From the NCBI GenBank assembly GCA_021821585.1, contig JAKACF010000003.1, positions 1 to 32,827 on the forward strand: DNA of 32,827 nt, given 5' to 3'. Shown piece by piece: positions 18,712-32,827 of this stretch; position 1 is the first letter of the stretch; every line of letters begins with the position of its first letter. Source of the stretch: Actinomycetes bacterium (GTDB lineage Bacteria > Actinomycetota > Acidimicrobiia > Acidimicrobiales > Bog-793). The position numbers and the translations under genes are program-made. The notes under the pieces were generated by a model. That model saw nothing but the letters and a program-made list of their open reading frames with translations. It searched no databases and had not been told where the DNA came from.

Positions 18712-18775
18712 CGCGCACCTCCTTGTGATGTCGTGCCGAGAACCTAGACGGCGCCGGCCTCGTTAGCCTCGGGCC

Positions 18776-19582: not shown

Positions 19583-19660
19583 GCCGGGCGCTCCCCGGGG
19601 TCGGTGCAGGCCGGCGGCCGTCCCCCTCCCCGGGAATTGCCCCTGCCGTGGCCCGGCAGA

Positions 19661-19681
19661 TAGACTGAACGTTCAGTCAAG
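19661..19681. promoter_or_regulatory. Operator/promoter element copy 1: TAGACTGAACGTTCAGTCAAG (contains the perfect 16-bp palindrome GACTGAACGTTCAGTC)
   Basis: Read directly. It ends 44 nt upstream of the aminotransferase start (19726). TTGCCC (19637-19642), an 18-nt spacer and TAGACT (19661-19666) resemble a sigma-A type -35/-10 pair, with the -10 embedded in the element. Confidence 0.7.
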
Positions 19682-19725
19682 ACAGCGGCGGCGGCTCCGC
19701 CCGCGCCGCCGGAAGGAGAGCCACC

Positions 19726-21099
19726 GTGGTTGCACGGACCGCGACCCTGCACAGCCTCGACGAGCTCATCGCCGCCGAGGAGCGCGCCTTCGTCGACCGC
19801 CAGCCCCGCTCGGGCGCCCTTCATGCGAGGGCCGTCCGCTCCCTCGCCGGGGGCGTGACGAGCAACTGGCAGATCTCGAGGCCCCAGCCGGTCTTCCTCG
19901 AGCGCGGGGAGGGTTCGCGGATCTGGGACGTCGACGGCAACGAGTACGTCGACCTGCACGGCGGCTACGGCGCCGGGCTCGCCGGCCACGCCCACCCCGC
20001 CGTCGTCGAGGCGGTCCGCCGCCAGGTCGCCCGCGGCACGCACTTCGCCCAGCCGAACGAGGACGCCGTCGCGGTGGCGGAGAACCTCGCCCGGCGCTTC
20101 GGTCTGCCGACATGGCGCTTCATGAACTCGGGCACCGAGGCCACGATGGACGCCGTCCACCTCATGCGGGCCGCCACGGGGCGTGACCTCATGGTGAAGA
20201 TCGAGGGCGGCTACCACGGCCACCACGACTCGGTCCAGGTCTCGGTCATGCCGGAGGCCGACGAGGTCGGCCCCGCCGGGCGACCCCACAGCGTGCCGTC
20301 GAGCAGCGGGGTCCCCTCCGCGATCAGCGCGCTCACCCTCGTCGCCCCCTTCAACGACCTCGACTCGCTGGCGGCCATCCTCGACGAGCATGCCGGCGAG
20401 GTCGCCGGGCTCATCCTCGAGCCGATCATGATGAACGCCGGGATCATCCACCCCGACCCGGGCTACCTCGCCGGCGTGAAGGAGCTCCTGCACGCCCACG
20501 GGGCGCTGCTCACCTTCGACGAGGTGAAGACGGGCCTCACCGTCGGGCCGGGCGGGGTGACGGCGCTGAGCGGGGTCGAGCCCGACCTCGTCTGCCTCGC
20601 CAAGGCGATCGGCGGGGGCCTCATCGCGGCGGCGGTCGGCGGCTCGGCGGAGCTGATGGAGGACGTGGCGGACGGCACCTACGAGATGGTCGGCACCTTC
20701 AACGGCAACCCCCTCTCGATGGCCGCCACCCGGGCGATGCTCGAGCAGGTGGCCACGCCGGACGCCTACGCCAGGCTCGCCACCCTGGCGGGGCGCGTCC
20801 GGGAGGAGCTCTCCTCGACGATCGCCGCCCACGGGCTCACCGCCCATGTCGTCTCGGCCGGGGCGAAGGGCTGCGTGACCTTCTCCCCCGCTCCCGTGCG
20901 GGACTACCGGGACTTCCTCGAGCTCGACGACCGCTTCAACCACCTCCACTTCCTCGTCCAGCACAACGGCGGGGTCTTCCTGCCGCCGTGGGGCAAGACC
21001 GAGCAGTGGCTGATCTCGGTCCAGCACGACGAGGCCGACATGGACCGCTTCCTCGCCAACTTCGAGCGGTTCGCCGCCGGCGTGGCGGCCGCCGCCTGA
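19726..21099 (+). CDS. Class-III PLP-dependent aminotransferase (glutamate-1-semialdehyde aminomutase-like subgroup)
   Basis: GTG 19726 is preceded by GGAAGGAGAG. Family blocks: DVDGNEYVDLHGGYGAGLAGHAHPAVVEAV, RFMNSGTEATMDAVHLMRAATGR, GLILEPIMMNAGII and LLTFDEVKTG (the Lys is the likely PLP site). Confidence 0.85.
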   Translation: MVARTATLHSLDELIAAEERAFVDRQPRSGALHARAVRSLAGGVTSNWQISRPQPVFLERGEGSRIWDVDGNEYVDLHGGYGAGLAGHAHPAVVEAVRRQVARGTHFAQPNEDAVAVAENLARRFGLPTWRFMNSGTEATMDAVHLMRAATGRDLMVKIEGGYHGHHDSVQVSVMPEADEVGPAGRPHSVPSSSGVPSAISALTLVAPFNDLDSLAAILDEHAGEVAGLILEPIMMNAGIIHPDPGYLAGVKELLHAHGALLTFDEVKTGLTVGPGGVTALSGVEPDLVCLAKAIGGGLIAAAVGGSAELMEDVADGTYEMVGTFNGNPLSMAATRAMLEQVATPDAYARLATLAGRVREELSSTIAAHGLTAHVVSAGAKGCVTFSPAPVRDYRDFLELDDRFNHLHFLVQHNGGVFLPPWGKTEQWLISVQHDEADMDRFLANFERFAAGVAAAA

Positions 21100-21140
21100 G
21101 CGACCCCTTGCGCGCCCGCCCTCCCGGCGCGACACTGGGC

Positions 21141-21164
21141 CCGACTGAACGAACGTTCAATCGG
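21141..21164. promoter_or_regulatory. Operator element copy 2, spacing variant: CCGACTGAACGAACGTTCAATCGG
   Basis: Read directly. It is a 24-bp imperfect palindrome (20/24 self-complementary) with the same half-sites, GACTGAAC and GTTCAaTC, separated by an extra GAAC. It ends about 60 nt upstream of the ABC substrate-binding protein start (21224). Confidence 0.55.
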
Positions 21165-21223
21165 ACAACCTTTCGTCTACTGACCCGGGTGCTCGACACC
21201 CACGACGCTGAGAGGACGAGAAG

Positions 21224-22537
21224 GTGCACCACCGCGAAGGCTGGAAGGACGGCAGGCGGGGCGCCGGCGGTGCTCCGCCGGAGGGCGGGGACGCGCCGGA
21301 CACGGGCCGGGGACCGCTCGGCTCGCCGCTCACGAGGCGCAACTTCCTCGCCCTCGGGGCGGGAGCAGCCCTCGGCGGCGTCCTGTCCGCCTGCGGGGGG
21401 AGCGGCTCGGGAAGCGGCGGGACGAGCCCGACCTCGAGCTCCGCGCTGAAGCTCCCCCGGCCGAACCACCCTGTCACCTGGCCGATCGCGGCCGACAACT
21501 CCCCCATCAAGTCCAACCTCGAGCCCGAGAAGAACGCCACCCTGCAGATCTACAACTGGGTCGCCTACATCAACGAGGCCGTGGTCAAGAACTTCTGCAA
21601 GAAGTACGACTGCAACTACTCGATCACGACCTTCAACACGATGTCGGAGGCGATGGCCAAGCTGGCGAGCGGCGAGGTGAACTTCGACGTCTTCTTCCCG
21701 ACCATCGACGTCATCGGCCAGCTGATCGACACCAAGATGATGCGGCCGCTCAACCACAGCTACATCCCGAACATCGCCAACACCTGGCCCGACTACCGCA
21801 ACCCCTTCTACGACGGCGGTTGGCGCTATACCGTCCCCTACTCGATCTACACGACGGGGATGGCCTGGCGGAAGGACAAGGTCTCGCTCGCTCCCGGCTG
21901 GGACATGCCCTGGCAGGCTGCGAAGTACAAGGGCAAGGTGGCGCTCCTCGACGACTACCGGGAGGGCATCAGCCTGGCCCTGTTGAAGCGCGGCATCACG
22001 GACCTCAACACGACGAACAGCGCCCAGATCGCCCAGGCCGGCAAGGACCTCGAGGCGCTCATCCCCCTCGTCGACGTCCGGATCGACAACAACGACTACA
22101 CCGAGATCCCGAACGGCAACACCTGGGTCCACCACGCCTGGTCGGGCGACATCGCCACGGCCGCCTACTACCTCCCGAAGGGGACCAAGATCGACGTCGT
22201 CGGCTACTGGTTCCCCGAGGACGGCAAGGGGCCGGTCGCGAACGACCTCATGAGCGTGCTCAGCACCGGCCAGAACCCCGTGCTCTCGCACCTGTTCCTC
22301 AACTACATGCTCGACGTCCACAACGCCATCGAGAACTACAGCTACGTCGGCTACATGCAGCCTCTCACCGCGGTGACGCCGTCGCTGCTCATCTCCGAGA
22401 AGCTGCTCCCGCCCCAGCTCATCTCGACGGTCGTCCGCCCGTCGGACTTCCGAGCCGGCGTCGAGGAGCTCGAGCTCCCAGTCAGCGCCAACCTGGTCTG
22501 GGAGCAGACCTGGAACTCCTTCGCCAAGGGCCTCTAG
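21224..22537 (+). CDS. ABC transporter substrate-binding lipoprotein, PotD/PotF (polyamine-type) family
   Basis: ORF 21224..22537. Tat-like/lipoprotein signal TRRNFLALGAGAALGGVLSAC. The mature part has the PotD/F-like pattern LQIYNWVAYINEAVVKNFCKKY...FDVFFPT...YTTGMAWRKD. It sits first in an operon with two permeases and a PotA-like ATPase. The start may lie downstream of 21224. Confidence 0.8.
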   Translation: MHHREGWKDGRRGAGGAPPEGGDAPDTGRGPLGSPLTRRNFLALGAGAALGGVLSACGGSGSGSGGTSPTSSSALKLPRPNHPVTWPIAADNSPIKSNLEPEKNATLQIYNWVAYINEAVVKNFCKKYDCNYSITTFNTMSEAMAKLASGEVNFDVFFPTIDVIGQLIDTKMMRPLNHSYIPNIANTWPDYRNPFYDGGWRYTVPYSIYTTGMAWRKDKVSLAPGWDMPWQAAKYKGKVALLDDYREGISLALLKRGITDLNTTNSAQIAQAGKDLEALIPLVDVRIDNNDYTEIPNGNTWVHHAWSGDIATAAYYLPKGTKIDVVGYWFPEDGKGPVANDLMSVLSTGQNPVLSHLFLNYMLDVHNAIENYSYVGYMQPLTAVTPSLLISEKLLPPQLISTVVRPSDFRAGVEELELPVSANLVWEQTWNSFAKGL

Positions 22538-22549
22538 GGCCGACGGACC

Positions 22550-23476
22550 ATGGCGAGCTCCGCCGTCGCTCGGGACCGACGAAGCGGACGGGGGCGCCTG
22601 GCGTGGGCCGCGCTGGCCGCGCCCGGGGCGGCCTGGCTGCTGCTGCTCTTCGTCGTCCCCTTCTACGTCATGCTGACCGTGGCCGCCGGCCAGATCGACC
22701 TGTTCGGGAACGTCGTCCCGGTCTGGGACCCACTCCACTGGTCGGCCGCCAACTTCACGGCCATCTGGCGGGACGTGTCGGGTCCCTCCTCCTACATCGG
22801 CCCACCGGCCATCCGGACGCTCGCCTACACGGCCATGGCGGCGGCCCTCTCGCTGCTCATCGCCTACCCGGTCGCCTACTTCGTGACGCGCTGCGCCGGG
22901 CGGCGAAAGACGCTCTTCCTCGTGCTGCTCGTGGCGCCGTTCTGGGTCAGCTACATGATGCGGATGCTCGCCTGGATCGACCTGCTCGGACAGAACGGCT
23001 TCATCAACAGGTCCTTCGCCTTCTTCCACCTCCCGGGCGGCGGCGTGAACTGGCTCGGCGGCCAGGCAGCCACCGTCATCGCCGGCCTCGTCTACGGCTA
23101 CATCCCCTACCTCATCCTCGTCCTCTACGCCGGGCTCGACCGCATCGACCCGAGCCTGCTCGAGGCGGCGCGCGATCTCGGCTGCTCGCGGACGAAGACC
23201 TTCTTGCGCGTGACCCTCCCTCTCTCCAAGCCGACGATCATCGCCGGCACCTTCATCACCGTCCTGCCGATGCTGGGCGACTACTACACGAACCAGCTGC
23301 TCTCGGCGGCACCGGGGACGACGATGATCGGCAACGTCATCGAGGGCCAGCTCGGCCAGCCCGGTGAACAGGGACAGGGTGCCGCCCTCGCCCTCCTGCT
23401 CCTCGTGGTCCTGCTCGTCCCGATGATCTGGTACGCCGTCTCGACGGCCCGTGCCTCGCGGGAGAACCTCGCGTGA
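22550..23476 (+). CDS. ABC transporter permease (PotB-like)
   Basis: ORF 22550..23476. Multiple TM segments and the EAA loop LLEAARDLGCSRTKTFLRVTLPLSKP. Confidence 0.9.
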   Translation: MASSAVARDRRSGRGRLAWAALAAPGAAWLLLLFVVPFYVMLTVAAGQIDLFGNVVPVWDPLHWSAANFTAIWRDVSGPSSYIGPPAIRTLAYTAMAAALSLLIAYPVAYFVTRCAGRRKTLFLVLLVAPFWVSYMMRMLAWIDLLGQNGFINRSFAFFHLPGGGVNWLGGQAATVIAGLVYGYIPYLILVLYAGLDRIDPSLLEAARDLGCSRTKTFLRVTLPLSKPTIIAGTFITVLPMLGDYYTNQLLSAAPGTTMIGNVIEGQLGQPGEQGQGAALALLLLVVLLVPMIWYAVSTARASRENLA

Positions 23477-24426
23477 GCGTCCTCACCCGGGAGGGTCCCG
23501 ACGAGCTGCTGCCGGGCGCACCCGAGACGAGCCGCCCGCCGGGGGCGCCGCGCCGCCTCCTCCGCCGCAGGCGCCTCTGGCGCCGGCCGGTCTTCCTCGA
23601 GGCCTTCACCTGGCTGTACCTGATCTGGTCGATCGTCCCGATCGGGATCGCCGTGCTCTTCTCGTTCAACAAGGGCCGCTCCCAGTCGGTCTGGCAGGGC
23701 TTCTCGTGGCGGTGGTACGTCACCGACCCCACCAACTCGGTCCTCCACAACCCCGAGCTCCACCAGGCCGTCGTCCAGACCCTCGTGCTCGCTGCCCTGA
23801 CGACGCTCATCACCGTGCCGATCGGGGTCGCCTTCGCCATCGGCATCGACCGGTGGAGGACCCGGACCGCCTCCGGCCTCAACTTCGTCATGATCTTCTC
23901 CTTCGTCGTGCCCGAGCTGCTGCTCGCCATCGCCCTCTTTTTCGTCGTGACCGTCCTGCTGCGCGTCGTCCCGCTCGGGACGCCGGCGGAGGTCGCCGGC
24001 CTCGTGGTCTGGAACCTGAGCTGGCCGGCCATCGTCGTCCGGGCGCGGCTCGTCACCATCGGCCGCGTCTACGAGGAGGCGGCAACGGACCTCGGGGCCT
24101 CGAGGATGCGGGCCATCGGCAGGGTGCTGATGCCGATGCTGCTGCCGGCGATCTTCGCGAGCGCCGTCCTCGTCTTCGCCGGGGTGGTCGACGACTTCGT
24201 GATCGTCGAGCAGCTCTCCTCGACCGCCGCCACCCAGCCGATGTCCGTGCTCATCTACTCGAACGTCCACGGCGGGCTCGCCGGGCCCGCCCTCAACGCC
24301 CTCGCCACGCTCATGCTCGCCTTCTCGCTCGTGGTCGCCGGGCTCGGGTACGTCGCCTACCGCTTCATGACCCGGGGCGAGCGGCGCACCACGACCGAGG
24401 CGCTCACGAGCATCGCAGGGATGTGA
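23473..24426 (+). CDS. ABC transporter permease (PotC-like)
   Basis: GTG 23473 overlaps the upstream stop (GTGA). TM-rich, with the EAA loop YEEAATDLGASRMRAIGRVLMPMLLPA. Confidence 0.9.
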   Translation: MSVLTREGPDELLPGAPETSRPPGAPRRLLRRRRLWRRPVFLEAFTWLYLIWSIVPIGIAVLFSFNKGRSQSVWQGFSWRWYVTDPTNSVLHNPELHQAVVQTLVLAALTTLITVPIGVAFAIGIDRWRTRTASGLNFVMIFSFVVPELLLAIALFFVVTVLLRVVPLGTPAEVAGLVVWNLSWPAIVVRARLVTIGRVYEEAATDLGASRMRAIGRVLMPMLLPAIFASAVLVFAGVVDDFVIVEQLSSTAATQPMSVLIYSNVHGGLAGPALNALATLMLAFSLVVAGLGYVAYRFMTRGERRTTTEALTSIAGM

Positions 24427-24463
24427 GCATGCGTCGGCCCGAGCAGGAAGGAGGTGAGGCCCC

Positions 24464-25606
24464 GTGCCAGGCGGCACCGTCACCCTCAAGAACCTGAGCA
24501 AGCGCTTCGGCGATCACCTCGCCGTCGACCGGATCTCCCTCGAGGTGCGAGCAGGTGAGTTCTTCTCCCTGCTCGGCCCGTCGGGATGCGGGAAGACCAC
24601 GACCCTCAGGATGATCGCCGGCTTCGAGGAGCCGACCGAGGGCGACATCGTCCTCGACGGCGACGAGGTCGGGCACCTCCCTCCGAACCGGCGGCCGGTG
24701 AACACCGTCTTCCAGAGCTACGCCCTCTTCCCCTTCCTCGACGTCGCCGAGAACGTCGCCTTCGGCCTCCGCTACCAGAGCGCGACCAAGGCGGAGGTGC
24801 GCCGGCGCGTCGGGGAGATGCTCGAGCTGGTGCAGCTGTCGGGTTACGAGAAGCGCCGGCCCGGCCAGCTGTCGGGGGGTCAGCAGCAACGCGTCGCCCT
24901 CGCCCGTGCCCTCGTGCTCAACCCCTCGGTGCTCCTCCTCGACGAGCCCCTCGGGGCGCTCGACGCGAAGCTCCGCCGGGCGCTGCAGATCGAGCTCAAG
25001 TCAATCCAGGAGCGCGTCGGGATCACCTTCCTCTACGTCACCCACGACCAGGAGGAGGCGCTCACCATGTCGGACCGGATCGCGGTCATGTCGAACGGGC
25101 ACATCGCCCAGCTCGGCTCGCCGCGGGAGGTCTACGAGGAGCCGGCGGACGCCTACGTGGCGGACTTCCTCGGCGTCTCGAACCTCATGGACGGGACGGT
25201 CACCGGGGCCGGCTCGGCCTCACGGCCCTGCGAGGTGGCCGTCGGGGAGTTCCGCCTCGAGGCGGCCTGCGGTGCCGTCGGGGCCACGGGGGCCGTGAAG
25301 CTCGCCATCCGGCCCGAGCGCATCTCGCTGCTCGGCTTCGACAAGCCCGGGCCGAACCGGCTCCCCGGCATGGTCGAGCGGACCGTCTTCCTCGGCAACG
25401 CCACCCAGGTGGTCGTCCGCCTGGCGGCCGGCATGGCGCTGCAGGCGCTCGTGCGCAACGACGACGGCGCCGCCGCCTTCGAGCCGGGCCTCCCGGTCCA
25501 GGTGGACCTTGCGCGAGAGGCCCTCAGAGTCCTCGAGGGCGGCGGGGTGTCGGTGGCGGCGATCCGGGAGGAGACGCTCGGCGACGTCGCCGGGCTGCTC
25601 GTCTGA
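24464..25606 (+). CDS. ABC transporter ATP-binding protein (PotA-like, with C-terminal TOBE-type domain)
   Basis: GTG 24464 is preceded by GGAAGGAGGTGA. Walker A GPSGCGKTT, Q-loop, signature LSGGQQQRVALARAL, Walker B LLLDEPLGALD and H-loop THDQEEA. Confidence 0.92.
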   Translation: MPGGTVTLKNLSKRFGDHLAVDRISLEVRAGEFFSLLGPSGCGKTTTLRMIAGFEEPTEGDIVLDGDEVGHLPPNRRPVNTVFQSYALFPFLDVAENVAFGLRYQSATKAEVRRRVGEMLELVQLSGYEKRRPGQLSGGQQQRVALARALVLNPSVLLLDEPLGALDAKLRRALQIELKSIQERVGITFLYVTHDQEEALTMSDRIAVMSNGHIAQLGSPREVYEEPADAYVADFLGVSNLMDGTVTGAGSASRPCEVAVGEFRLEAACGAVGATGAVKLAIRPERISLLGFDKPGPNRLPGMVERTVFLGNATQVVVRLAAGMALQALVRNDDGAAAFEPGLPVQVDLAREALRVLEGGGVSVAAIREETLGDVAGLLV

Positions 25607-25648
25607 GCGCCCGACCCACCGCCTCGCTGCCGGGCGGGCCGGCGAGCC

Positions 25649-26338
25649 TCAGCGGCGCCCCGCCCGCTTGCGGACGCGTCGGCCGGAGGGGACGAAGCCG
25701 AGCTGCTGGGCGGCCACGGCGATGGCGAGCTCGAAGGCGCGCTGGGCGTCGACGACGGGGTCCTCGAGCACGATCTGGATCGCCAGCCCGTCCAGGAGGG
25801 CCGTGAAGCCGACGGCGAAGTCGTCCACCGAGACCTCCTGGAATTCTCCGGCCTGCATGCCGTCGCGGACGATCTGGCGGATCGTCTCGCGGAAGCGCTC
25901 GTCGGACTCCTCCCGGACGCGGCGCACCTCCTCGTTCCGCAGCGCCTGGGCCCACAGGTCGAGCCAGAGCGCCCATGGCTCCTCCACCGACCCGGGCACC
26001 GCCGGCAGGCAGCTCATCGAGACGACCTCCTCGAGCCGCCCCGCCGCAGAGGGGATCTGGCCCGTCTGCCGGGCCATCTCGGCGTACCAGCCCTCCTCGG
26101 CCTGCCGCATCGCCTCGGCGAGCAGCCGGTCCTTGGTCTTGAAGTAGTAGATGACGAGGGCGGGGCTCACCCCGGCCCGCTCGGAGACGTCCGCGATCCG
26201 GGTCTCGGGAAAACCGCGTTCCATGATGACGTCGATCGCGGCCGAGAGGATCTGGGTCCGCCGGGCGTCGGGCAGGCCGTCGAGGCTGGTCTCCGATGTG
26301 GTGGTCACCCGCAACCGTCCTTCCTTCTCGGCGGACAC
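25649..26338 (-). CDS. TetR/AcrR-family transcriptional regulator
   Basis: ORF 25649..26338. N-terminal HTH RRTQILSAAIDVIMERGFPETRIADVSERAGVSPALVIYYFKTKDRLLAEAM. It is divergent from the flavoprotein operon, with operator copy 3 in the 96-bp intergenic region. Confidence 0.9.
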   Translation of the reverse strand: MSAEKEGRLRVTTTSETSLDGLPDARRTQILSAAIDVIMERGFPETRIADVSERAGVSPALVIYYFKTKDRLLAEAMRQAEEGWYAEMARQTGQIPSAAGRLEEVVSMSCLPAVPGSVEEPWALWLDLWAQALRNEEVRRVREESDERFRETIRQIVRDGMQAGEFQEVSVDDFAVGFTALLDGLAIQIVLEDPVVDAQRAFELAIAVAAQQLGFVPSGRRVRKRAGRR

Positions 26339-26386
26339 GGCCCTCTCCGTCGCGCACGGGCCTTGTCCGACTGTAACAGCGCTGGA

Positions 26387-26407
26387 TAGACTGAACAGTC
26401 AGTCAAT
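26387..26407. promoter_or_regulatory. Operator/promoter element copy 3: TAGACTGAACAGTCAGTCAAT
   Basis: Read directly in the TetR/flavoprotein divergent intergenic region. It ends 27 nt before ATG 26435. TTGTCC (26363-26368), an 18-nt spacer and TAGACT (26387-26392) have the same geometry as copy 1. Confidence 0.7.
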
Positions 26408-26434
26408 CACGGGAGCCGACGAACGGAGGACGGG

Positions 26435-28069
26435 ATGCCAGCGGACTACGACGCCGTCGTCGTCGGAGGAGGCCACAACGGGCTCGTCGCCGGGGCGTAC
26501 CTGGCGAGGGCCGGGATGCGGACCGTCGTGCTCGAGTCCCGCCACAAGACCGGCGGGGCGGCGACGACCGACTCGCCCTGGCCGGAGGCGCCCGAGTTCA
26601 AGGTGACGCGCCTGTCCTATGTCATGAGCCTCATGCCGAGGACCATCCTCGAGGACCTCTCCCTCGAGCGGCACGGCTACAAGGTCTACCCCATGGGCCC
26701 CTACTACCAGGCCTTCCCCGACGGCCGTTCGATCCAGATCTGGGCCGACGACTCACGGCGCAACTACGAGCAGATCGCCAAGTTCTCCCGGCGCGACGCC
26801 GAGGCGATGCCGCGCTGGGACGCCTGGCTCGGTGGCCTCGCCGACGTGCTCGGGCCGATGCTGCTCACGGTGCCGCCGAAGCTCGGCTCGAAGCGGCCGG
26901 GCGACCTCGCCGGCCTGCTGCGAATGGCCTGGCGCCACCGGGGCCTCGACGTCCGGAGGATCGGCGACGTCACGCGCCTCATGACGATGTCGATCGCCGA
27001 CCTGCTCGACGACTGGTTCGAGACCTGGCAGGTGAAGGCGCCGATCGCCGTCAACGGGGTCATCGGCACCTGGGCCGGCCCCTACGAGCCGGGCACCGCC
27101 TACGTCATGGCGCACCACTCGATCGGCGACGTCGGCGACGGCCACCTCGGCAGCTGGGGCTACCCCGAGGGCGGGATGGGCGCCGTCGCCGACGCCATCG
27201 CCCGCGCCGCGAGGACCTTCGGCGTCGAGATCCGCACCGACGCCCGGGTCGCCCGCACCCTCGTCCGCAACGGTGCCGCCACGGGAGTCGCGCTCGACAA
27301 CGGCGACGAGCTGCACGCCCCGGTCGTCGTGACGAGCCTCCATCCCCGGACCGCCTTCCTCGAGCACCTCGCCCGCGAGGAGCTGCCGGACGACTTCGTC
27401 AACGACATCGAGCACTGGAAGACGCGTAGCGGCGTCGTGAAGATCAACCTCGCCCTGTCCGAGCTGCCCGACTTCATCGCCGATCCCGGCACGAACCTGC
27501 AGTCCCACCACACGGGCTCGGTGGAGATGGCGCCCTCCATGGAGTACATGGAGCGGGCCTTCCTCGACGCGAGGGAGGGACGGGCCGCCGAGCGCCCCTT
27601 CAGCGACTCGGTCATCCCGAGCACCTTCGACAGGACGCTCTGCCCGGAGGGGACCCACGTCATGTCGCTGTTCAGTCAGTGGGTGCCGGCCGACTGGGCC
27701 GACGAGCCGCACGAGGTGGAGCTCGAGGCCTACGCCGACCGCCTCATCGCGCAGTACGACGAGCTCGCCCCGAACTTCAAGGCGTCCATCCTGCACCGCG
27801 ACATCGTCGGCCCGCACGAGATGCAGCGGGACTACGGCCTCGTCGGCGGGAACATCTTCCACGGCGAGCTCTCGGTCGAGCAGCTCTTCCACATGCGGCC
27901 GGCCCCGGGGTTCGCCGACTACCGCACGCCGGTGCGCGGGCTGTACTACGCGAGCTCGGCCACCCATGCCGGCGGCGGGGTCTGCGGCATCCCCGGCTAC
28001 CAGGCGGCAAAGGCGGCCCTGTCCGACCGGCGCTCGGCAGGGCGGCGCGCACGGCTCCGGGCCAAATGA
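26435..28069 (+). CDS. FAD-dependent oxidoreductase, phytoene-desaturase (CrtI)/PYROXD2-like family
   Basis: ATG 26435 is preceded by GGAGGA. Rossmann dinucleotide motif YDAVVVGGGHNGLVAGAYLARAG...VLESRHKTGGAA. The overall size (544 aa) and blocks such as SYVMSLMPRTILEDLSLERHGY and QIAKFSRRDAEAMPRW resemble my recollection of PYROXD2-type proteins. Confidence 0.8.
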   Translation: MPADYDAVVVGGGHNGLVAGAYLARAGMRTVVLESRHKTGGAATTDSPWPEAPEFKVTRLSYVMSLMPRTILEDLSLERHGYKVYPMGPYYQAFPDGRSIQIWADDSRRNYEQIAKFSRRDAEAMPRWDAWLGGLADVLGPMLLTVPPKLGSKRPGDLAGLLRMAWRHRGLDVRRIGDVTRLMTMSIADLLDDWFETWQVKAPIAVNGVIGTWAGPYEPGTAYVMAHHSIGDVGDGHLGSWGYPEGGMGAVADAIARAARTFGVEIRTDARVARTLVRNGAATGVALDNGDELHAPVVVTSLHPRTAFLEHLAREELPDDFVNDIEHWKTRSGVVKINLALSELPDFIADPGTNLQSHHTGSVEMAPSMEYMERAFLDAREGRAAERPFSDSVIPSTFDRTLCPEGTHVMSLFSQWVPADWADEPHEVELEAYADRLIAQYDELAPNFKASILHRDIVGPHEMQRDYGLVGGNIFHGELSVEQLFHMRPAPGFADYRTPVRGLYYASSATHAGGGVCGIPGYQAAKAALSDRRSAGRRARLRAK

Positions 28070-30168
28070 GCCTCGAGCGGATGCTCGAGGCCCGTTCGGT
28101 CGCCCTCGTCGGCGCCACCCCCCGACCCGGCTCGCTCGGGATGCGGGCCCTCACCGAGCTCGAGCGCAGTCCCGGCCGGCCGTCCATCCACCTCGTCAAC
28201 CCTGGCCGCGCCGGGACCGCGATCGCCGGTCGCTCCGTCGTCGCCTCTCTCGGGGAGGTGGCGGACGAGGTGGACCTCGTCCTGGCTGCGGTCGGGGACG
28301 CCAGCCTCGAAGCGGTGCTGACCGACGCCGCTCGATGCGGGGCGGCGGGCGCCGTCGTCTTCGGCAGCGCCGTCGACCCGGTCACGCCCGGGGACTCCAG
28401 GGCCTTCCGGGCCCGCCTCGCCGCCATCGCCCGGGACGCCGGCATGGCGCTGTGCGGTGGGGGCTGCATGGGCTTTGTCTCACAGGGCCTGCGGGCCATC
28501 GGCTACCTGGAGCGCGACCCCCTGGCGAGAGGACCGGTGGCGCTCGTCACCCACTCCGGCTCGGCGTTCTCGGCGCTGCTTCGCGCCGAGCGACCCTTCG
28601 CCTGGTCGCTGGCGGTCTCCTCCGGCCAGGAGCTCGTCACGACGACGGCGGACTACCTCGAGTACGCCCTCGGGCTGCCCGAGACCGGCCTCGTCGCCCT
28701 CGTCGCCGAGACGCTGCGGGACGTGCCGCGGCTTCGCGCCGCCCTCGAGGCGGCGGCCGAACGGGACATCCCGGTGGTCGCCCTGCCCGTCGGCACCTCG
28801 GAGAGCGGCCGGGCGATGGTGGCGGCGCACTCGGGCGCGCTCGCCGGTGGAGCCGCCGCCTTCGAGGCCCTCTTCCGCGCCCACGGGGTGGTGCAGGTCG
28901 CCGATCTCGCCGAGCTGTGCGACACCGTCGAGCTCCTCCTCGCCGCCCGCCGGCACCGTGGCTCGACCCGACCGGGAGGAGCGCTGGCGGCGGTGCTCGA
29001 CTCGGGAGCCGAGCGCGCGCTGCTCGTCGACGTGGCCGACGAGCTCGGTGTCCCCTTCGCCGCGGTGTCGCCGGCGACCACCGCACGGCTCGAGGAGCTC
29101 CTCGACCCCGGGCTGCCGGCCACCAACCCGCTCGACGTCTGGGGGTCCGGGCGCTCGACCGAGGAGCTGTTCACCGAGACCCTCCTCGCCCTGTCGAGGG
29201 ACGCCTCCGTCTCGGTCGTCGCCCTGGCGGTCGACCTCGTCCCCGAATTCGACGGCGACGACTCCTACCGGAGCGCCGCCCTGGCGGTGGCCGCCCGGTC
29301 CGAGGTCCCGGTCTGCGTCCTCTCCCACGTCCCGAGCGCGCTCGACCGGGAGGCGGCGGCGCGCCTGCGGGCTGCCGGCGTGGCCGTCCTCGAAGGGACG
29401 CGCCCGGGCCTCGCCGCCCTCGGGCACCTCCTCTCCCGGGCCGAGGGGTCGCCGGGGGAACGGGGCCGGACGCCCGGGCCGGACGCCGACCGCCGGGAGC
29501 GCTGGCGGGCCCGGCTCGCCGACGGCCCGCTCCGCCCCGACGAGGCGGTCGCGATGCTCGCCGACTACGGCATCGCCTCGCCGGCGACACGGGTCGTCGG
29601 CGACGAGAGGGCCGCCGTGGCGGCGGCCGCCGAGATCGGCTTCCCCGTCGCCCTGAAGACGGCCGCGGGGGACCTCGCCCACAAGTCCGAGGTCGGCGGC
29701 GTCGTGCTCGGCCTGCGCGACGCGGACGGAGTGGCCGCCGCCTACGGCGACCTCTGTCGGCGGCTCGGGCCGGCGGCGGTCGTGTGCGCGATGGCCCCCG
29801 AGGGCGTCGAGCTCTCCCTCGGCGTCCTCCGCGACCCCCTCGTCGGCCCGCTCGTCGTCGTCGGCGCCGGGGGGGTCCTCGTCGAGCTGATCGCCGACCG
29901 CGCCGTCGCCCTCCCGCCCGTCGGGCCCGAGGCAGCCGCCACGATGGTGTCGGGGCTCCGCCTCGCCCGCCTGCTCGAGGGCTTCCGGGGCGGGCCGCCT
30001 GCGGACCTCGGCGCCGTCGCGAGGGCGATCACCTCGATGTCGGCGCTCGCCACCGAGCTCGGGGCCGACCTCTCCGCCGTCGAGGTCAACCCGCTGTCGT
30101 GCGGCCCCTCCGGTGCCCTCGCCCTCGACGTCCTCGTCGAGGGGCGCTGTGCTCAGAAGATGACGTAG
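28066..30168 (+). CDS. ADP-forming (NDP-forming) acyl-CoA synthetase family protein (CoA-binding + succinyl-CoA-ligase-like + ATP-grasp domains)
   Basis: ATG 28066 overlaps the upstream stop (ATGA). In-frame part of track ORF 27679..30168 from MSLERMLEARSVALVGAT (CoA-binding start). Also VTHSGSAFSALL and a C-terminal ATP-grasp-like region, LADYGIASPATRVV...IGFPVALKTAAGDLAHKSEVGGVVLGL. Confidence 0.8.
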   Translation: MSLERMLEARSVALVGATPRPGSLGMRALTELERSPGRPSIHLVNPGRAGTAIAGRSVVASLGEVADEVDLVLAAVGDASLEAVLTDAARCGAAGAVVFGSAVDPVTPGDSRAFRARLAAIARDAGMALCGGGCMGFVSQGLRAIGYLERDPLARGPVALVTHSGSAFSALLRAERPFAWSLAVSSGQELVTTTADYLEYALGLPETGLVALVAETLRDVPRLRAALEAAAERDIPVVALPVGTSESGRAMVAAHSGALAGGAAAFEALFRAHGVVQVADLAELCDTVELLLAARRHRGSTRPGGALAAVLDSGAERALLVDVADELGVPFAAVSPATTARLEELLDPGLPATNPLDVWGSGRSTEELFTETLLALSRDASVSVVALAVDLVPEFDGDDSYRSAALAVAARSEVPVCVLSHVPSALDREAAARLRAAGVAVLEGTRPGLAALGHLLSRAEGSPGERGRTPGPDADRRERWRARLADGPLRPDEAVAMLADYGIASPATRVVGDERAAVAAAAEIGFPVALKTAAGDLAHKSEVGGVVLGLRDADGVAAAYGDLCRRLGPAAVVCAMAPEGVELSLGVLRDPLVGPLVVVGAGGVLVELIADRAVALPPVGPEAAATMVSGLRLARLLEGFRGGPPADLGAVARAITSMSALATELGADLSAVEVNPLSCGPSGALALDVLVEGRCAQKMT

Positions 30169-30509
30169 ACCTTCCGCAGCGTCTCGTGGATCTCCCACGT
30201 GCCGGTCCAGCCGACCGGGAAGACGACGTTGTCACCCGGGCCGATCTCGACGGGCTCCCCGTCGGTCGGCGTCACCGTCATCGACCCGGAGAGGACGTGG
30301 ATGAACTCGTTCTCCTCCTGCACCCAGTACGACGGCCCCGGCGTGCACTCCCAGATGCCCATCTCGGCCCCGTCGTGGGACCAGGCCGTGAGCCCGGAGG
30401 CGGCCATCGCCGGCCCCGTCGCCTCCTCGAGCGGCCCCCAGTCCTCGAGCGCCGCCGCGGCGGCCTCGTGCACGAGGGCGAGGGGCGGGGCGATGCGTGC
30501 GTCGGTCAT
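30153..30509 (-). CDS. Cupin-fold protein, DUF861/Cupin_3 (EutQ-like)
   Basis: ATG 30509 is preceded by GGAGAAAGGA. Product: MTDARIAPP...MGIWECTPGPSYWVQEENEFIHVLSGSMTVTPTDGEPVEIGPGDNVVFPVGWTGTWEIHETLRKVYVIF, the pattern I associate with DUF861. The 45-codon extension in the track ORF is Arg/Pro-rich with no RBS. Confidence 0.8.
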   Translation of the reverse strand: MTDARIAPPLALVHEAAAAALEDWGPLEEATGPAMAASGLTAWSHDGAEMGIWECTPGPSYWVQEENEFIHVLSGSMTVTPTDGEPVEIGPGDNVVFPVGWTGTWEIHETLRKVYVIF

Positions 30510-30659
30510 GACGGTGCGGTCCTTTCTCCGGTGAAGGCGTGCCACGAGCTCGGCGCGGGTCGTCCGACCGGAGCCGACGTGTGACGGGTTTCCGCCCACC
30601 GCCGGTGCCGGTCGCTTCGCCGCCCTGGCCGGGCCCGTGCGCACGGACGAACCTTGGCA

Positions 30660-30680
30660 TAAACTGAACAGTCAGTCAAT
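30660..30680. promoter_or_regulatory. Operator/promoter element copy 4: TAAACTGAACAGTCAGTCAAT
   Basis: Read directly. Positions 30659-30681 match 26386-26408 at 22 of 23 bases. It ends 16 nt before the acyl-CoA dehydrogenase ATG (30697), with the RBS GAGGAG in between. TAAACT fits a -10 (TAnnnT). Confidence 0.7.
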
Positions 30681-30696
30681 CGCTGAGGAGCGCCCC

Positions 30697-31863
30697 ATGT
30701 ACCAGCTGACGCCTGCGGACGAGTCGATCCGGGACCGCGCGCGGTCCTTCGTCGGCGACCTCATCCCCTACGAGGAGCAGGCGGAGGCCAACGAGGGCAG
30801 GCTGCCGGACGGCGTGGCCGAGAAGATGAAGGCCCGGGCGCGACAGGAGGGCCTGCTCGCCACCAACATGCCGGCGGACCTCGGGGGCGGCGGCTGCTCG
30901 ATGCTCCAGCAGGTCCTCGTGCAGGAACAGGTGGGGCGCGTGACCAACACCCTCGCGTGGATGCTGTCGACCCCCCCCGCCTGGTGGCCGGCGGTGGCGA
31001 CCGAGGAGCAGCGGCGCCGCTACCTCGTCCCGACGGTGGCCGGCGAGATGTCCGAGTGCTACGCCATCACCGAGGAGGCGGCCGGCTCCGACGTCGACGG
31101 CATCGAGGCGACGGCGAGGCGGGAGGGCGACGGGTACGTCCTCGACGGCGTGAAGTGGCACGTCACCTCCTTCAACGAGGCGGCCTACGCCTTCTTCCAG
31201 GCCCGCCTCGCCGACGGGCCCCACGCCGGCGAGCACGCCATGTTCGTGGTCGACCTCCCCTCCCCCGGCGTCCGGGTGGTGCGCACCCCGGCCTACTCCC
31301 ACACGACCACCCACCACCATCCGATCGTCGCCTTCGAGGGCGTGCGCGTGCCCGCCGGCAGCCTCGTCGGCCAGGAGGGCGCCGGCATGACCTTCGCCTA
31401 CGAGTGGTTCCGCTTCGAGCGCTTCATGGTGGCAGCCCGCTGCCTCGGGGCCGGCGAGCGCCTCGTCGAGGAGGCGACCCGCTTCGCGAACGAGCGCGTC
31501 GTCGGCGGGCGGCCGATCGCCGAGTACCAGCTGGTGCAGGCGATGCTGGCTGACAGCGCGACCGAGCTCTTCGCCGCCCGCTCGATGCTCTACGAGGCGG
31601 CCCGCGGGGTCGACGAGGGCCGTGACGTGAAGATCCAGCACGCCCAGGCGTCGATGGCCAAGCTCTACTGCTCGGAGATGGCCAACCGGGTGGCCGACCG
31701 GACGGTGCAGATCTTCGGGGGCCGGGGCTTCATGCGCGAGAACGTCGCCGAGCGCTTCTACCGGGAGCTCAGGGTGGAGCGGATCTGGGAGGGCACGAGC
31801 GAGCTCCAGCGGCTCATCGTCGCCGGCCAGCTCGCCAAGCGGGGCGTCCGCTCCCTCGTGTGA
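30697..31863 (+). CDS. Acyl-CoA dehydrogenase
   Basis: ATG 30697 (RBS GAGGAG). In-frame part of track ORF 30637..31863 from MYQLTPADESIRDRARSF. ACAD blocks: CYAITEEAAGSDVDGIEATA, DGYVLDGVKWHVTS, RPIAEYQLVQAMLAD and QIFGGRGFMRENVAERFYRELRVERIWEGTSELQ. Confidence 0.9.
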   Translation: MYQLTPADESIRDRARSFVGDLIPYEEQAEANEGRLPDGVAEKMKARARQEGLLATNMPADLGGGGCSMLQQVLVQEQVGRVTNTLAWMLSTPPAWWPAVATEEQRRRYLVPTVAGEMSECYAITEEAAGSDVDGIEATARREGDGYVLDGVKWHVTSFNEAAYAFFQARLADGPHAGEHAMFVVDLPSPGVRVVRTPAYSHTTTHHHPIVAFEGVRVPAGSLVGQEGAGMTFAYEWFRFERFMVAARCLGAGERLVEEATRFANERVVGGRPIAEYQLVQAMLADSATELFAARSMLYEAARGVDEGRDVKIQHAQASMAKLYCSEMANRVADRTVQIFGGRGFMRENVAERFYRELRVERIWEGTSELQRLIVAGQLAKRGVRSLV

Positions 31864-31866
31864 GGC

Positions 31867-32827
31867 TCAACCGGCCGAGCTGAACTCGGCCGTGCGGACC
31901 GGCTCGCCGAGGTAACCGCGGGCCACCATCGTGACGAACTGGTACACGCCGTCCTCCTGGCTCGAGAGCGGCCCGGGGAGGGCGCCCTTGGACGACAGCC
32001 CGCGCTGGACCGACTCGCAGGCGAGCCAGTCCTGACGGTTCGTGATGTCCCAGAAGTCGACGGCGAAGGCGGGGTCGAAGTCCTCGCGGGCGGCGTCCTC
32101 GGGGGCGAAGTGCCACTCGCAGACGATCTTCGTCCGGTCCGGGCCGAGCGGGGTGAGGACGTGGGTCATCACGTAGTCGGGGTGCAGGCTGACGAGCACG
32201 TTCGGGAACAGTCCGATGTAGTCGACGATGCGCCGCCGCCGCTCGTCGAGGCCACGCAGCGGAGAGGCACCCGTCGTGGTGTGGAGCGACATCGTGGCGT
32301 AGCCCTCCCGGATGTCCATCCAGCCCGCCACCCAGGCGCCCCGGCCGGGGTGGTAGTAGTTCTCGCCGCTGCGGGGCGGGCTGGCGGCGCACAGCTCGGG
32401 GTGGATGACCGGGCAGTGGTAGCACTCCTGGTAGTTCTCGGTCAGGATCTTCCAGTTGGCCGCCACGACGTACTCGTGGCGGCCCCGTGTCACCAGCCGT
32501 TCCGGCTCGTAGGGGGCGACGATCTCCTCCAGGCCGGCCACGTGCTCGGAGAAGGGCCCGGCGGCGCCTGCGGCGTCGACGAAGAGCAGGCCGTGCCACT
32601 CGGCGAGGGGGAGCTCGACGAGGCCGAACTCGAGTGGGTCGAAGTGGTCGTCCCCGTCGAAGTCGGGCGCCTTGCGCAGCCTGCCGTCCAGGCGGTACGA
32701 CCAGGCGTGGTAGGGGCAGAGCACGATCGGCCGGTTGACGGTGGCCGCCCCGCACGCCAACAGCTCATGGCCGCGGTGGCGGCAGGCGTTGACGAAGGCC
32801 CTCGCCCGGCCCTCCTGGTCCCGCATG
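31867..32827 (-). CDS. Rieske [2Fe-2S] non-haem-iron oxygenase alpha subunit (GbcA/Stc2/CntA-like); partial, N-terminus beyond the window end
   Basis: ORF 31867..32826. Rieske ligands appear in CRHRGHELL...CPYHAWSY. A catalytic-domain His pair appears in NYQECYHCPVIHPEL. The Met at 32826 is almost certainly internal, because a Rieske domain normally begins about 40-60 aa before the CxH. Confidence 0.85.
   Translation of the reverse strand, partial: MRDQEGRARAFVNACRHRGHELLACGAATVNRPIVLCPYHAWSYRLDGRLRKAPDFDGDDHFDPLEFGLVELPLAEWHGLLFVDAAGAAGPFSEHVAGLEEIVAPYEPERLVTRGRHEYVVAANWKILTENYQECYHCPVIHPELCAASPPRSGENYYHPGRGAWVAGWMDIREGYATMSLHTTTGASPLRGLDERRRRIVDYIGLFPNVLVSLHPDYVMTHVLTPLGPDRTKIVCEWHFAPEDAAREDFDPAFAVDFWDITNRQDWLACESVQRGLSSKGALPGPLSSQEDGVYQFVTMVARGYLGEPVRTAEFSSAG

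Follow-up and report, generated by a model that had tools for sequence, protein, structure and literature searches.

Which compound is degraded when a single repressor appears to control a polyamine-type importer, an aminotransferase, two coenzyme A (CoA)-dependent enzymes and an oxygenase? This question is raised by the region from 19726 onwards in a 32,827-nucleotide stretch of DNA (the window) that forms positions 1 to 32,827 of contig JAKACF010000003.1 in assembly GCA_021821585.1, from an Actinomycetes bacterium of the Acidimicrobiales. The original prediction for this region was an uncharacterised pathway for the catabolism of amines or N-alkylated amino acids. Our analysis supports an amine pathway and sharpens its substrate: the regulon would serve an amine that bears a positive charge and is probably N-methylated (quaternary or tertiary ammonium, 'onium'), through a CoA-dependent route, a reading that we consider evenly poised between right and wrong. 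The most informative component is gene H, whose sequence places it among DddX-family-type enzymes (CoA ligase/onium lyase). We classify the cluster as a putative amine-catabolic, repressor-controlled set of known enzyme families in an uncharacterised combination, because every protein belongs to a known superfamily without reaching the cut-off.

As the window has 72% G+C, raw lists of open reading frames (ORFs) are crowded with spurious frames. Gene frames were therefore picked by third-position G+C (GC3) frame analysis together with translation, which gave one clear gene per stretch and 11 genes between 19726 and 32827. Independent gene calls in an ENA contig (L089) that is 99.85% identical to window positions 16437-32827 are the same 11 genes, with lengths from A to K of 457, 438, 308, 317, 380, 229, 544, 700, 118, 388 and 400 amino acids (aa). 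The genes in the window are as follows:

19726..21099, plus strand: gene A, class-III (GSAM-like) pyridoxal phosphate (PLP) aminotransferase, 457 aa; Pfam Aminotran_3
21224..22537, plus strand: gene B, PotD/PotF-family solute-binding lipoprotein, 437 aa; SBP_bac_8
22550..23476, plus strand: gene C, ATP-binding cassette (ABC) permease, PotH/PotB-like, 308 aa; BPD_transp_1
23473..24426, plus strand: gene D, ABC permease, PotC/PotI-like, 317 aa; BPD_transp_1
24464..25606, plus strand: gene E, polyamine-type ABC ATPase, 380 aa; ABC_tran and TOBE_2
25649..26338, minus strand: gene F, TetR-family regulator with a BetI-type C-terminal domain, 229 aa; TetR_N and TetR_C_6
26435..28069, plus strand: gene G, CrtO/CrtI-family flavin adenine dinucleotide (FAD) oxidoreductase, 544 aa; DAO, Amino_oxidase and NAD_binding_8
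28066..30168, plus strand: gene H, fused ADP-forming acyl-CoA synthetase of predicted DddX type, 700 aa; CoA_binding_2, Succ_CoA_lig and ATP-grasp_5
30153..30509, minus strand: gene I, DUF861/Cupin_3 protein, 118 aa; Cupin_3, with an independent 118-aa gene call
30697..31863, plus strand: gene J, short/medium-chain-type acyl-CoA dehydrogenase (ACAD), 388 aa; four ACAD domains
31867..beyond 32827, minus strand: gene K, Rieske non-haem-iron oxygenase alpha subunit; Rieske and Ring_hydroxyl_A

This inventory agrees with the original prediction, which had named a motif-linked set of PotD/F-type uptake genes, a GSAM-like class-III aminotransferase, an ADP-forming acyl-CoA synthetase, an acyl-CoA dehydrogenase, a CrtI-like flavoprotein, a GbcA/Stc2/CntA-like Rieske oxygenase and a DUF861 cupin. 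All of these were recovered from the domain and structure matches given below, and the synthetase could be refined to the DddX type. The start of permease gene D overlaps the stop of permease gene C by 4 nt, and the convergent 3' ends of H and I overlap by 16 nt. H is translationally coupled to G via an ATGA overlap, and this tight coupling suggests that the product of G feeds H. Gene K is truncated by the window end, with its N-terminal ~80 aa lying outside; its full length in L089 is 400 aa. Past the window, L089 continues for ~5 kb with a WS/DGAT (wax ester synthase/diacylglycerol acyltransferase) gene, a dUTPase, an RNase T and other unrelated genes, and so the cluster ends with the Rieske gene.

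The 11 genes are predicted to form one self-contained, TetR-repressed catabolic regulon of five transcription units, with an operator in all five promoters. The palindrome ACTGAAC-NN-TCAGTC occurs without mismatch in one orientation at 19663, 26389 and 30662 and in a degenerate form at 21144-62. These four sites correspond exactly to the four promoter gaps of the 19726-32827 region, and a fifth lies just outside the window. The operators, listed unstranded, are:

19663..19678: operator O1, perfect palindrome GACTGAACGTTCAGTC with no mismatch on either strand, ~48 nt before the start of gene A
21144..21162: operator O2, degenerate copy ACTGAACGAACGTTCAATC, 3 mismatches, upstream of the binding-protein gene B
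26389..26404: operator O3 GACTGAACAGTCAGTC, in the F/G divergent promoter
30662..30677: operator O4 AACTGAACAGTCAGTC, in the I/J divergent promoter
L089 16626-16641, ~235 nt past the window end: fifth operator-like palindrome GACTGTATGGTCAGTC, overlapping the Rieske start codon

The shared palindromes, together with a repressor gene (F) divergent from G, give the locus the architecture of a TetR-controlled regulon with putative operators. F has the TetR_N and TetR_C_6 domains of the BetI type, and its scores on the BetI models were 103.2 against a cut-off of 201.3 (TIGR03384) and 91.6 against 118 (PRK00767); F was rejected as a BetI orthologue, as the domains are present and the equivalog cut-off is missed. 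Only 48 bp separate gene K from its upstream WS/DGAT gene in L089.

We also scanned the 20-mer TAGACTGAACNNTCAGTCAA in one genome per GTDB species. It was found exactly in at least 119 stretches, all from Actinomycetota, where ~17 matches would be expected by chance on our own estimate from the collection size. Among the 118 loci recovered, every operator site except one (L195) flanks cluster genes. Its commonest position was the promoter between the (DAO-)cupin and ACAD genes (43 of ~120 sites), followed by the TetR–G promoter (30), the region upstream of the aminotransferase genes of relatives (~27) and the TetR–H promoter (6). No extra regulon member emerged from these 118 loci, in which ~20 sites border an unprobed, unnamed gene. 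The operator-bearing stretches come from peat, soil, groundwater and mine-drainage bins, and the window sequence itself is present in mine-drainage and soil metagenome DNA runs. One TetR protein with a defined 16-bp palindrome provides an experimental handle for ligand screening by operator release.

The most informative comparison is that of H. Its best match in the PDB is DddX (7cm9, 263.7 bits), residues 47-726 of which align to residues 8-693 of H. Other solved relatives of H are a 3-hydroxypropionate-CoA ligase with swapped domain order (201 bits), a 4-hydroxybutyrate-CoA ligase (158) and archaeal ACD subunits (~112). When a profile of 15 H proteins was aligned with DddX by hhalign, the probability was 100%, with 31% identity over 662 columns. 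The CoA-binding domain, the succinyl-CoA-ligase-like flavodoxin domain and the C-terminal ATP-grasp domain of the DddX family are all present in one polypeptide, in the same fused order and aligned over the full length. DddX of Psychrobacter sp. D2 (PDB 7CM9) is an ATP-dependent dimethylsulfoniopropionate (DMSP) lyase of the ACD superfamily (PMC8163506). In that enzyme His292 is phosphorylated and DMSP-CoA is formed, Trp391 and Phe435 grip the sulfonium by cation-pi contacts, and Glu432 takes the alpha-proton, upon which dimethyl sulfide (DMS) leaves and acryloyl-CoA is released (PMC8163506).

We observed that two of these residues are conserved in H. His255 (in AAHSGALAG) corresponds to the phospho-His292 of DddX and Trp359 (in NPLDVWG) to the cation-pi Trp391, and both are invariant in 15 homologues. 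A Trp359 equivalent is absent from the aligned 3-hydroxypropionate-CoA ligase and from a Shinella plasmid homologue. H also has a conserved acidic loop (E394, D398) in the region of DddX Glu432, whose exact counterpart differs by aligner. We conclude that H would activate a short carboxylic acid bearing a cationic group, and elimination of that group by H is plausible. As with DddX, downstream CoA enzymes would receive the product as an acyl-CoA. The two differ in that H is only ~30% identical to DddX, its host is a terrestrial/mine-drainage actinomycete, and its partners are a PotD-type ABC importer, an aminotransferase, a Rieske oxygenase and an ACAD, whereas those of DddX are a BCCT transporter, DddB and DddC. 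A second, Roseobacter 'DddX-like' clade, ~23% identical to DddX and without the Glu, still converts DMSP to DMS and acryloyl-CoA (2026; PMC13543886). Characterised DddX-like proteins are WP_188673365.1 and WP_024092211.1. Plasmid-borne homologues from Ruegeria and Leisingera are 35-36% identical to H. On a Paracoccaceae (Rhodobacterales) plasmid, an H homologue (40-41%) is directly followed by a J homologue (36%), so the pairing of H with an ACAD recurs outside Actinomycetota. If H is correctly assigned, the DddX enzyme type, so far known from marine DMSP cleavage alone, would extend to another phylum, habitat and set of partners, and it becomes testable whether CoA-dependent elimination serves generally to break C-N+ or C-S+ bonds.

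Gene-neighbourhood conservation, suggested as a check along with the original prediction, proved extensive: the set is syntenic in Acidimicrobiia, Mycobacteriaceae, Nocardioidaceae, Streptosporangiaceae and others, and its synteny and operator conservation are far beyond chance. Among the 80 loci whose G proteins match best (65-95% identity), which come from Acidimicrobiia, Streptosporangiaceae, Frankiaceae, Sporichthyaceae and Mycobacteriaceae and include the complete Mycolicibacterium litorale F4 genome, the TetR, ATPase and H genes each lie beside G in ~45-50 loci, the aminotransferase in 36, the ACAD in 32, the Rieske gene in 30 and the cupin in 29, with several loci clipped by contig ends. 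A sample centred on H, which avoids the bias of choosing G, comprised 57 loci with full 10-kb flanks. Here a TetR gene was present in 56/57 loci, the ATPase in 51/57, the aminotransferase in 49/57, the ACAD in 48/57, the solute-binding protein in 45/57, the Rieske gene in 42/57, flavoprotein G in 41/57, a DAO-family flavoprotein in 40/57 and the cupin in 26/57. Less frequent were a DAO–GcvT fusion resembling dimethylglycine oxidase (9/57), a free GcvT (6/57) and an aldehyde dehydrogenase within 10 kb (2/57). On the basis of these H-centred counts, the core consists of the importer, the aminotransferase, the Group-V Rieske oxygenase, the DddX-type H, the ACAD and the TetR regulator, while G, the DAO flavoprotein and the cupin are variable add-ons.

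The DAO flavoprotein (~413 aa, sarcosine-oxidase-beta-like; for example L004 14117-15373) lies upstream of the cupin in 40/57 loci, in an operon divergent from the ACAD gene. It is absent from the window (30510-30696), where cupin I is driven directly by the divergent promoter. Other relatives of the cluster add the dimethylglycine-oxidase-like fusion besides this soxB-like DAO gene, or an amine oxidase gene (3 related loci). In the closest sequenced relative (L001, ~91% nucleotide identity) the whole 4.4-kb ABC operon is gone and ~90 bp stand in its place (window 21076-25516 against L001 8989-9082), with all other cluster genes retained; either this is a recent deletion or import is done elsewhere. 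Partial copies of the cluster were seen in bins labelled Dormiibacterota, 'Micrarchaeaceae archaeon' and Gemmatimonadota (L049, L051 and L271), which point to horizontal transfer or else to actinobacterial contigs placed in the wrong bin. Cultured carriers of the cluster belong to Mycolicibacterium (M. litorale F4, M. chubuense DSM 44219 and M. rhodesiae DSM 44223) and Nocardioides (N. koreensis JCM 16022 and N. agariphilus KCTC 19276). The cluster is common among abundant soil Actinomycetota, and its substrate class has been missed entirely by current annotation.

What the importer carries can be narrowed from the binding protein. B matches SBP_bac_8 (73.9 bits) and its only PDB matches are PotD/PotF/SpuD/E-type chains, but it is far below the cut-offs for PotD (72 bits against 582) and PotF (68 against 636) and is hence no orthologue of either. 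When the residue numbers of E. coli PotD are transferred to an alignment of B with the PotD-family chain 7xjm, 7 of 10 pocket residues are kept (W34, Y37, D168, E171, W229, D257 and Y293), and three differ from PotD (E36 to A, Y85 to D and W255 to A). Such an acidic and aromatic pocket suits a cation, not a carboxylate. As B retains these amine-binding residues of PotD, its sequence argues for a cationic amine as the imported form rather than a zwitterionic betaine or an N-alkyl amino acid. The remaining components fit this importer family: C scores 150 bits on PotH and 134 bits on PotB, both below the cut-offs, and D has PotC/PotI as its best permease match (PotC 119 bits). E passes the cut-off of the potA subfamily (TIGR01187; 371.9 against 355.6) and stays below that of PhnT2 (383 against 457.7). 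The locus thereby has the potA-subfamily ATPase and the two Pot-type permeases of a PotABCD/PotFGHI system. B begins with a long extension in which RRNFL resembles a twin-arginine motif and LSAC forms a lipobox (window 21224-21400), which suggests that B is Tat-exported and lipid-anchored; its true start may be downstream of 21224.

Aminotransferase A belongs to Aminotran_3 (215.7 bits), and the PLP-lysine motif LAKAIGGG is found in its translation. In the PDB its nearest relative is GSAM, followed by beta-transaminases and a D-phenylglycine aminotransferase. Its scores were 347.3 against 527.3 for hemL (TIGR00713), 362.5 against 398 for PRK00062, 310 against 425 for the transaminase model PRK07046 and 296 against 525 for GntE. 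A was rejected as HemL on account of its scores under the hemL cut-offs and the position of its gene behind a TetR operator in a catabolic cluster.

The oxygenase points to a charged nitrogen. K has the Rieske motif CRHRGH...CPYHAW (CxH...CxxH) and a Ring_hydroxyl_A domain, and its motif QECYHCPVIH supplies the bridging Glu and the Cys-x-x-Cys beside the iron ligands. Glu-Cys-x-x-Cys is described as the distinguishing mark of the Group-V Rieske oxygenases, whose substrates include glycine betaine, stachydrine, carnitine and benzalkonium (PMC10952381). The best PDB matches of K are 3n0q, Stc2 (3vca/4qup) and CntA. K thus shares the Rieske centre, the Ring_hydroxyl_A domain and the signature motif with GbcA, Stc2 and CntA (PMC10952381, PMC7948474). 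It differs in falling below the GbcA cut-off (177.5 against 670 for a full-length K homologue in L004), and hence is not a GbcA orthologue.

G is, by its scores, only a distant member of the CrtO/CrtI superfamily. It reached 238 bits over its full length on the CrtO model (cut-off 1000) and 80.6 on crtI_fam (cut-off 238), with a weak amine-oxidase signal, and among solved structures CrtI (37 bits) is its sole relative by sequence. At least 8000 scored candidates match G at E<=1e-20, mostly unnamed metagenome proteins; the only names among the 120 matches listed are 'phytoene dehydrogenase-like', 'phytoene desaturase family protein' and 'NAD(P)/FAD-dependent oxidoreductase'. A carotenoid role was rejected from the scores and from the lack of carotenoid genes nearby in the window and L089. 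For PYROXD2, to which the original prediction likened G, human metabolite quantitative trait loci link to trimethylamine and dimethylamine (PMC3169529), and our literature search on PYROXD2 returned only such human associations and no biochemistry.

J carries the catalytic Glu of the medium-chain acyl-CoA dehydrogenase type (IWEGTSE). Its best NCBIfam match is the acryloyl-CoA reductase AcrC (198.5 against a cut-off of 640), it scores 169 against 540 on CaiA, and its best PDB matches are the caffeyl-CoA reductase CarC (183.5) and, almost level with it, a mammalian short-chain acyl-CoA dehydrogenase (SCAD; 177.7). Cupin I matches Cupin_3 with 86.5 bits and, in the PDB, only uncharacterised structural-genomics cupins; a full-text search on DUF861 returned nothing relevant. 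In related loci the cupin gene is usually downstream of a DAO gene. On the Ruegeria pomeroyi DSS-3 megaplasmid, a string of ACAD, cupin, AMP-forming CoA ligase and RidA genes (446685-450343, L086) lies 8 kb from the H homologue. It may be a sign that CoA-dependent breakdown of amino-acid-like compounds involves cupins and enamine/imine deaminases in other settings as well.

G-family proteins also repeatedly adjoin folate-dependent GcvT/DmdA-like aminomethyltransferases, in paralogous actinobacterial loci as well as on proteobacterial plasmids. In the paralogous actinobacterial system (L057-L080; for example L070 9893-14349), a G paralogue of 62-68% identity is preceded by a major facilitator superfamily transporter, and behind the aminomethyltransferase, which scores 327.6 on the DmdA model (cut-off 410), lies a Ring_hydroxyl_A protein without a Rieske domain. 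Plasmids of Fuscovulum, Rhizobium and Parasedimentitalea carry, in this order, a TetR gene, G and another G-like gene, then an aminomethyltransferase and an aminotransferase, and finally Rieske subunits and a polyamine-type ABC importer. The cluster of the Fuscovulum ytuae plasmid (NZ_CP124537 111801-126258, L082) has a GntE-like aminotransferase (420 bits against a cut-off of 525), two Rieske alpha subunits, a DMSP-lyase-family cupin (PF16867), an amidohydrolase and a methyltransferase. On a Shinella plasmid, one operon combines genes for G, GcvT, enoyl-CoA hydratase, 3-hydroxyacyl-CoA dehydrogenase, an H homologue and a member of the BKACE family. What these proteobacterial clusters have in common with ours is limited to G, H and J, at 35-43% identity.

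These observations can be combined into a possible route. The PotD-type system would import a cationic amine without a free carboxylate. Rieske oxygenase K may then hydroxylate the carbon beside the charged nitrogen, leading to N-demethylation or C-N cleavage as with GbcA, Stc2 and CntA, and flavoproteins G and DAO might oxidise the remaining N-methyl or N-alkyl bonds; in some relatives the GcvT or dimethylglycine-oxidase-like partners would trap the C1 unit. Aminotransferase A would turn a primary amino group into a carbonyl. H is predicted to activate the short, still cationic acid via phospho-His255, with Trp359 holding the cationic group, and if that group is on C3, H may eliminate it in the manner of DddX to give acryloyl-CoA. 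J would either reduce acryloyl-CoA to propionyl-CoA or desaturate a longer omega-onium acyl-CoA. Primary 4- or 5-aminoacyl-CoAs cyclise to lactams, and a CoA route is therefore sensible only for beta-alanine-type C3 acids or N-fully-substituted onium acids. The cluster in this way points to a nitrogen-rich cationic substrate class that soil Actinomycetota may be equipped to scavenge.

Several observations weigh against this route. For Glu432 of DddX, MAFFT pairs the near-invariant Glu394 (EFD with EFD), whereas HMMER and hhalign pair Ser400. Equivalents of DddX Tyr181, Asp208 and Phe435 are not conserved in H, and lyase activity is for this reason unproven. The N-oxidising steps are not fixed, because the Nocardioides and Solirubrobacterales versions have neither G nor the cupin and the window lacks the DAO gene. 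J is about equally near to oxidative SCADs and to enoyl-CoA reductases, so its predicted direction may be either. No GbcB/CntB-type Rieske reductase gene, as found with known Group-V systems, was seen in the window or 5 kb beyond. The aldehyde-to-acid step has no assigned enzyme, the candidates being G, DAO and a housekeeping dehydrogenase. Lastly, the aminotransferase, solute-binding protein, TetR and Rieske proteins of the proteobacterial analogues are just 25-32% identical to ours and may serve other substrates; because of this, the plasmid clusters were rejected as orthologous and kept as thematic parallels only.

The original prediction had also stated that the set matches no named pathway and that no aldehyde dehydrogenase or enoyl-CoA hydratase is visible. 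Both statements stand. The two outcomes that would have refuted the prediction, missing synteny in relatives and a fit with a characterised pathway, were looked for and neither turned up. Profile, PDB and literature searches place the set in no named pathway, and the HemL, PotD/F, BetI, GbcA, CaiA, AcrC and CrtO equivalog cut-offs were all missed by wide margins. Neither enzyme is among the 11 genes or in ~5 kb beyond, and no hydratase appeared in the recurrent gene clusters of related loci, for which no dedicated hydratase probe was used. An artefact of the window edge was rejected as the explanation, given the L089 flank and the two aldehyde dehydrogenase loci among 57. The proposed route accounts for this lack only on the condition that the acid is made by G or by a housekeeping enzyme.

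We compared the cluster with the systems it most resembles. In the known demethylation chain, glycine betaine, dimethylglycine and sarcosine are processed by gbcAB, by dgcAB or dimethylglycine oxidase, and by soxBDAG, and Arthrobacter has 4-methylaminobutyrate oxidases. The logic of N-demethylation by a Rieske enzyme and then flavoproteins is the same, as is the tetrahydrofolate-dependent, GcvT-type C1 capture in some relatives. However, the flavoprotein of the window is CrtO/CrtI-like and not DgcA- or DAO-like, the window has no DAO or GcvT gene, and the cluster lacks GbcB, DgcAB and SoxBDAG and adds an aminotransferase, CoA enzymes and a polyamine-type transporter. With potABCD/potFGHI, puu and spu it shares the importer family, a potA-passing ATPase and a class-III aminotransferase as the amine-removing enzyme. 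The 11 genes differ from puu/spu in lacking the families of gamma-glutamylpolyamine synthetase (PuuA/SpuB-type gamma-glutamylation), gamma-glutamyl-amine oxidase, hydrolase and the aminoaldehyde or succinate-semialdehyde dehydrogenases. Of the ddd/dmd systems, the BCCT transporter, DddB/C, DmdA and DmdB are lacking. The Bco (S. meliloti BcoAB/BcoC) and E. timonensis Bbu pathways likewise convert an onium acid to a CoA thioester that meets an ACAD-family flavoenzyme (PMC8364193). Of the Bco enzyme types the cluster has just a CoA ligase and an ACAD; hydratase and thioesterase were not found in the window, L089 or the recurrent genes. The cluster further differs from Bco/cai in having no CoA transferase and in possessing an aminotransferase and a Rieske oxygenase.

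How else could the cluster be read? An unmethylated aminopropyl polyamine (spermidine, norspermidine or 1,3-diaminopropane) might be imported and converted via beta-alanine and acryloyl-CoA to propionyl-CoA, with G and/or DAO as polyamine oxidases, A transaminating, H making beta-alanyl-CoA and eliminating ammonia, and J reducing; we consider this unlikely but not negligible. Among the primary omega-aminoacyl-CoAs, beta-alanyl-CoA alone is not known to close readily on itself to a lactam, and a CoA route would on that ground make sense for aminopropyl compounds. The PotD/F-type importer with its retained acidic and aromatic residues and potA-subfamily ATPase fits, and so do the GSAM/beta-transaminase grouping of A, the DddX likeness of H and the AcrC match of J. 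G has, besides its weak Amino_oxidase signal, an N-terminal match to putrescine oxidase, and DAO, a member of the family of the gamma-glutamylputrescine oxidase PuuB, can be counted here as well. A Shinella plasmid further ties a polyamine-type ABC operon to a Cupin_3 gene, an FAD oxidoreductase and an aldehyde dehydrogenase. Against these points, the near-core Group-V (quaternary-ammonium) Rieske oxygenase, the BetI-type regulator domain and the GcvT, DmdA-like and dimethylglycine-oxidase-like C1-trapping partners are left unexplained, an aldehyde dehydrogenase is still needed, and ammonia leaves less readily than DMS or trimethylamine. Another reading is an actinobacterial version of the known betaine pathways, with direct uptake of a zwitterionic betaine such as gamma-butyrobetaine, carnitine or delta-valerobetaine. 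H would then be a BcoAB-like ligase, J a BcoC/CaiA-like dehydrogenase and K a CntA/GbcA-like enzyme releasing trimethylamine or formaldehyde. S. meliloti BcoAB, an ATP-dependent gamma-butyrobetaine:CoA ligase, sets a precedent (PMC8364193), and the CaiA match of J (169 bits), the relation of K to CntA and Stc2 with its ECYHC motif, the BetI-type F and the Shinella operon joining G and H homologues to hydratase, 3-hydroxyacyl-CoA dehydrogenase, GcvT and BKACE genes agree with it. Yet the transporter is PotD-type with its acidic pocket residues kept and not OpuAC/BCCT-type, the near-core aminotransferase has no role, all equivalog cut-offs are missed, and no hydratase (given the lack of a dedicated probe), thioesterase, carnitine dehydrogenase or BKACE gene is among the recurrent genes of the 57 loci. 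A tblastn search of H against plasmids found only Pat-like ATP-grasp fragments in Sinorhizobium, and a literature search on valerobetaine and Rieske enzymes yielded nothing pertinent. We regard the betaine pathway as distinctly improbable.

The kinship of H with DddX could also be taken literally, so that DMSP-amine, S-methylmethionine-derived 3-dimethylsulfoniopropylamine or DMSP itself is degraded: A would yield DMSP-aldehyde, a flavoprotein DMSP, and H as a true DMSP lyase DMS and acryloyl-CoA. DddX is indeed the closest solved relative of H, with the His and Trp conserved, and a clade just 23% identical to it also cleaves DMSP (PMC13543886). Actinobacteria without any known DMSP lyase gene make DMS from DMSP (PMC8163506). 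The DmdA score of 327.6 (cut-off 410) for the aminomethyltransferase beside G paralogues and the PF16867 DMSP_lyase cupin in the Fuscovulum cluster point the same way. The habitat, however, is mine drainage and soil, the reported DMSP-cleaving actinobacteria are marine genera not seen among the carriers, K falls in a nitrogen-directed group, and the equivalent of Glu432 differs by aligner (Glu394 or Ser400). As the DMSP-specific binding protein DmpX is TmoX/OpuAC-like and not PotD-like, the transporter analogy lends no support, and we hold this sulfonium version to be very unlikely. Finally, there may be no single pathway, only small unrelated operons that are co-located (importer with aminotransferase, CoA ligase with ACAD, an aromatic Rieske enzyme). 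The membership does vary (G in 41, DAO in 40 and the cupin in 26 of 57 loci), and in L001, the closest relative, the ABC operon is gone. But one operator sequence stands at all five promoters and, across 118 loci of several orders, almost exclusively beside cluster genes, and the core genes recur in 42-56 of the 57 loci even though order and strand have been rearranged. This makes independent operons scarcely credible, and chance juxtaposition is essentially excluded. A CoA-dependent route for a cationic, probably N-methylated amine remains our preferred proposal.

A bolder form of this proposal, about which we are doubtful, is that the H family represents a CoA-dependent 'onium lyase' central to an undescribed degradation of aminopropyl or onium-propyl compounds. 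The amine end of the substrate would be transaminated and oxidised to a 3-onium-propionate, H would thioesterify it and expel the charged group as trimethylamine, an amine or DMS, and the ACAD would reduce the resulting acryloyl-CoA, a sequence of steps that we offer just as tentatively. No step dependent on an aldehyde dehydrogenase or hydratase would then be encoded in the regulon. Candidate substrates are N-methylated polyamines, 3-(trimethylammonio)propylamine and homocholine-type compounds, as well as DMSP-amine (from plant S-methylmethionine) and trimethylornithine or betaine lipid headgroups. If true with DMS leaving, H would count as a type of DMSP lyase so far undescribed in Actinobacteria, and if true with trimethylamine leaving, soils would have a hitherto unrecognised aerobic source of trimethylamine.

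A few features around the cluster deserve mention. The neighbourhood is of a lipid-storage type on both sides. Upstream (window 11867-17623) there are a PorA-like protein, tandem WS/DGAT wax-ester/triacylglycerol synthases at 13072-14514 and 14511-16004, and an AMP-forming acyl-CoA ligase at 16001-17623, and a third WS/DGAT gene lies directly downstream of the Rieske gene K (L089 16683-18137). Directly upstream of operator O1, positions 18776-19582 encode a Thr/Pro/Ser-rich secreted protein of 268 aa, possibly a lipoprotein, which has no significant Pfam family and is kept beside the aminotransferase gene in only 3 close relatives. Coding is ambiguous at 4380-6201 of the window: the minus-strand ORF at 4925-5878 is of Arg/Pro/Gly-rich low complexity and probably spurious, and the gene backed by the frame plot, at 5266-6201 on the minus strand, encodes an inositol monophosphatase family protein.

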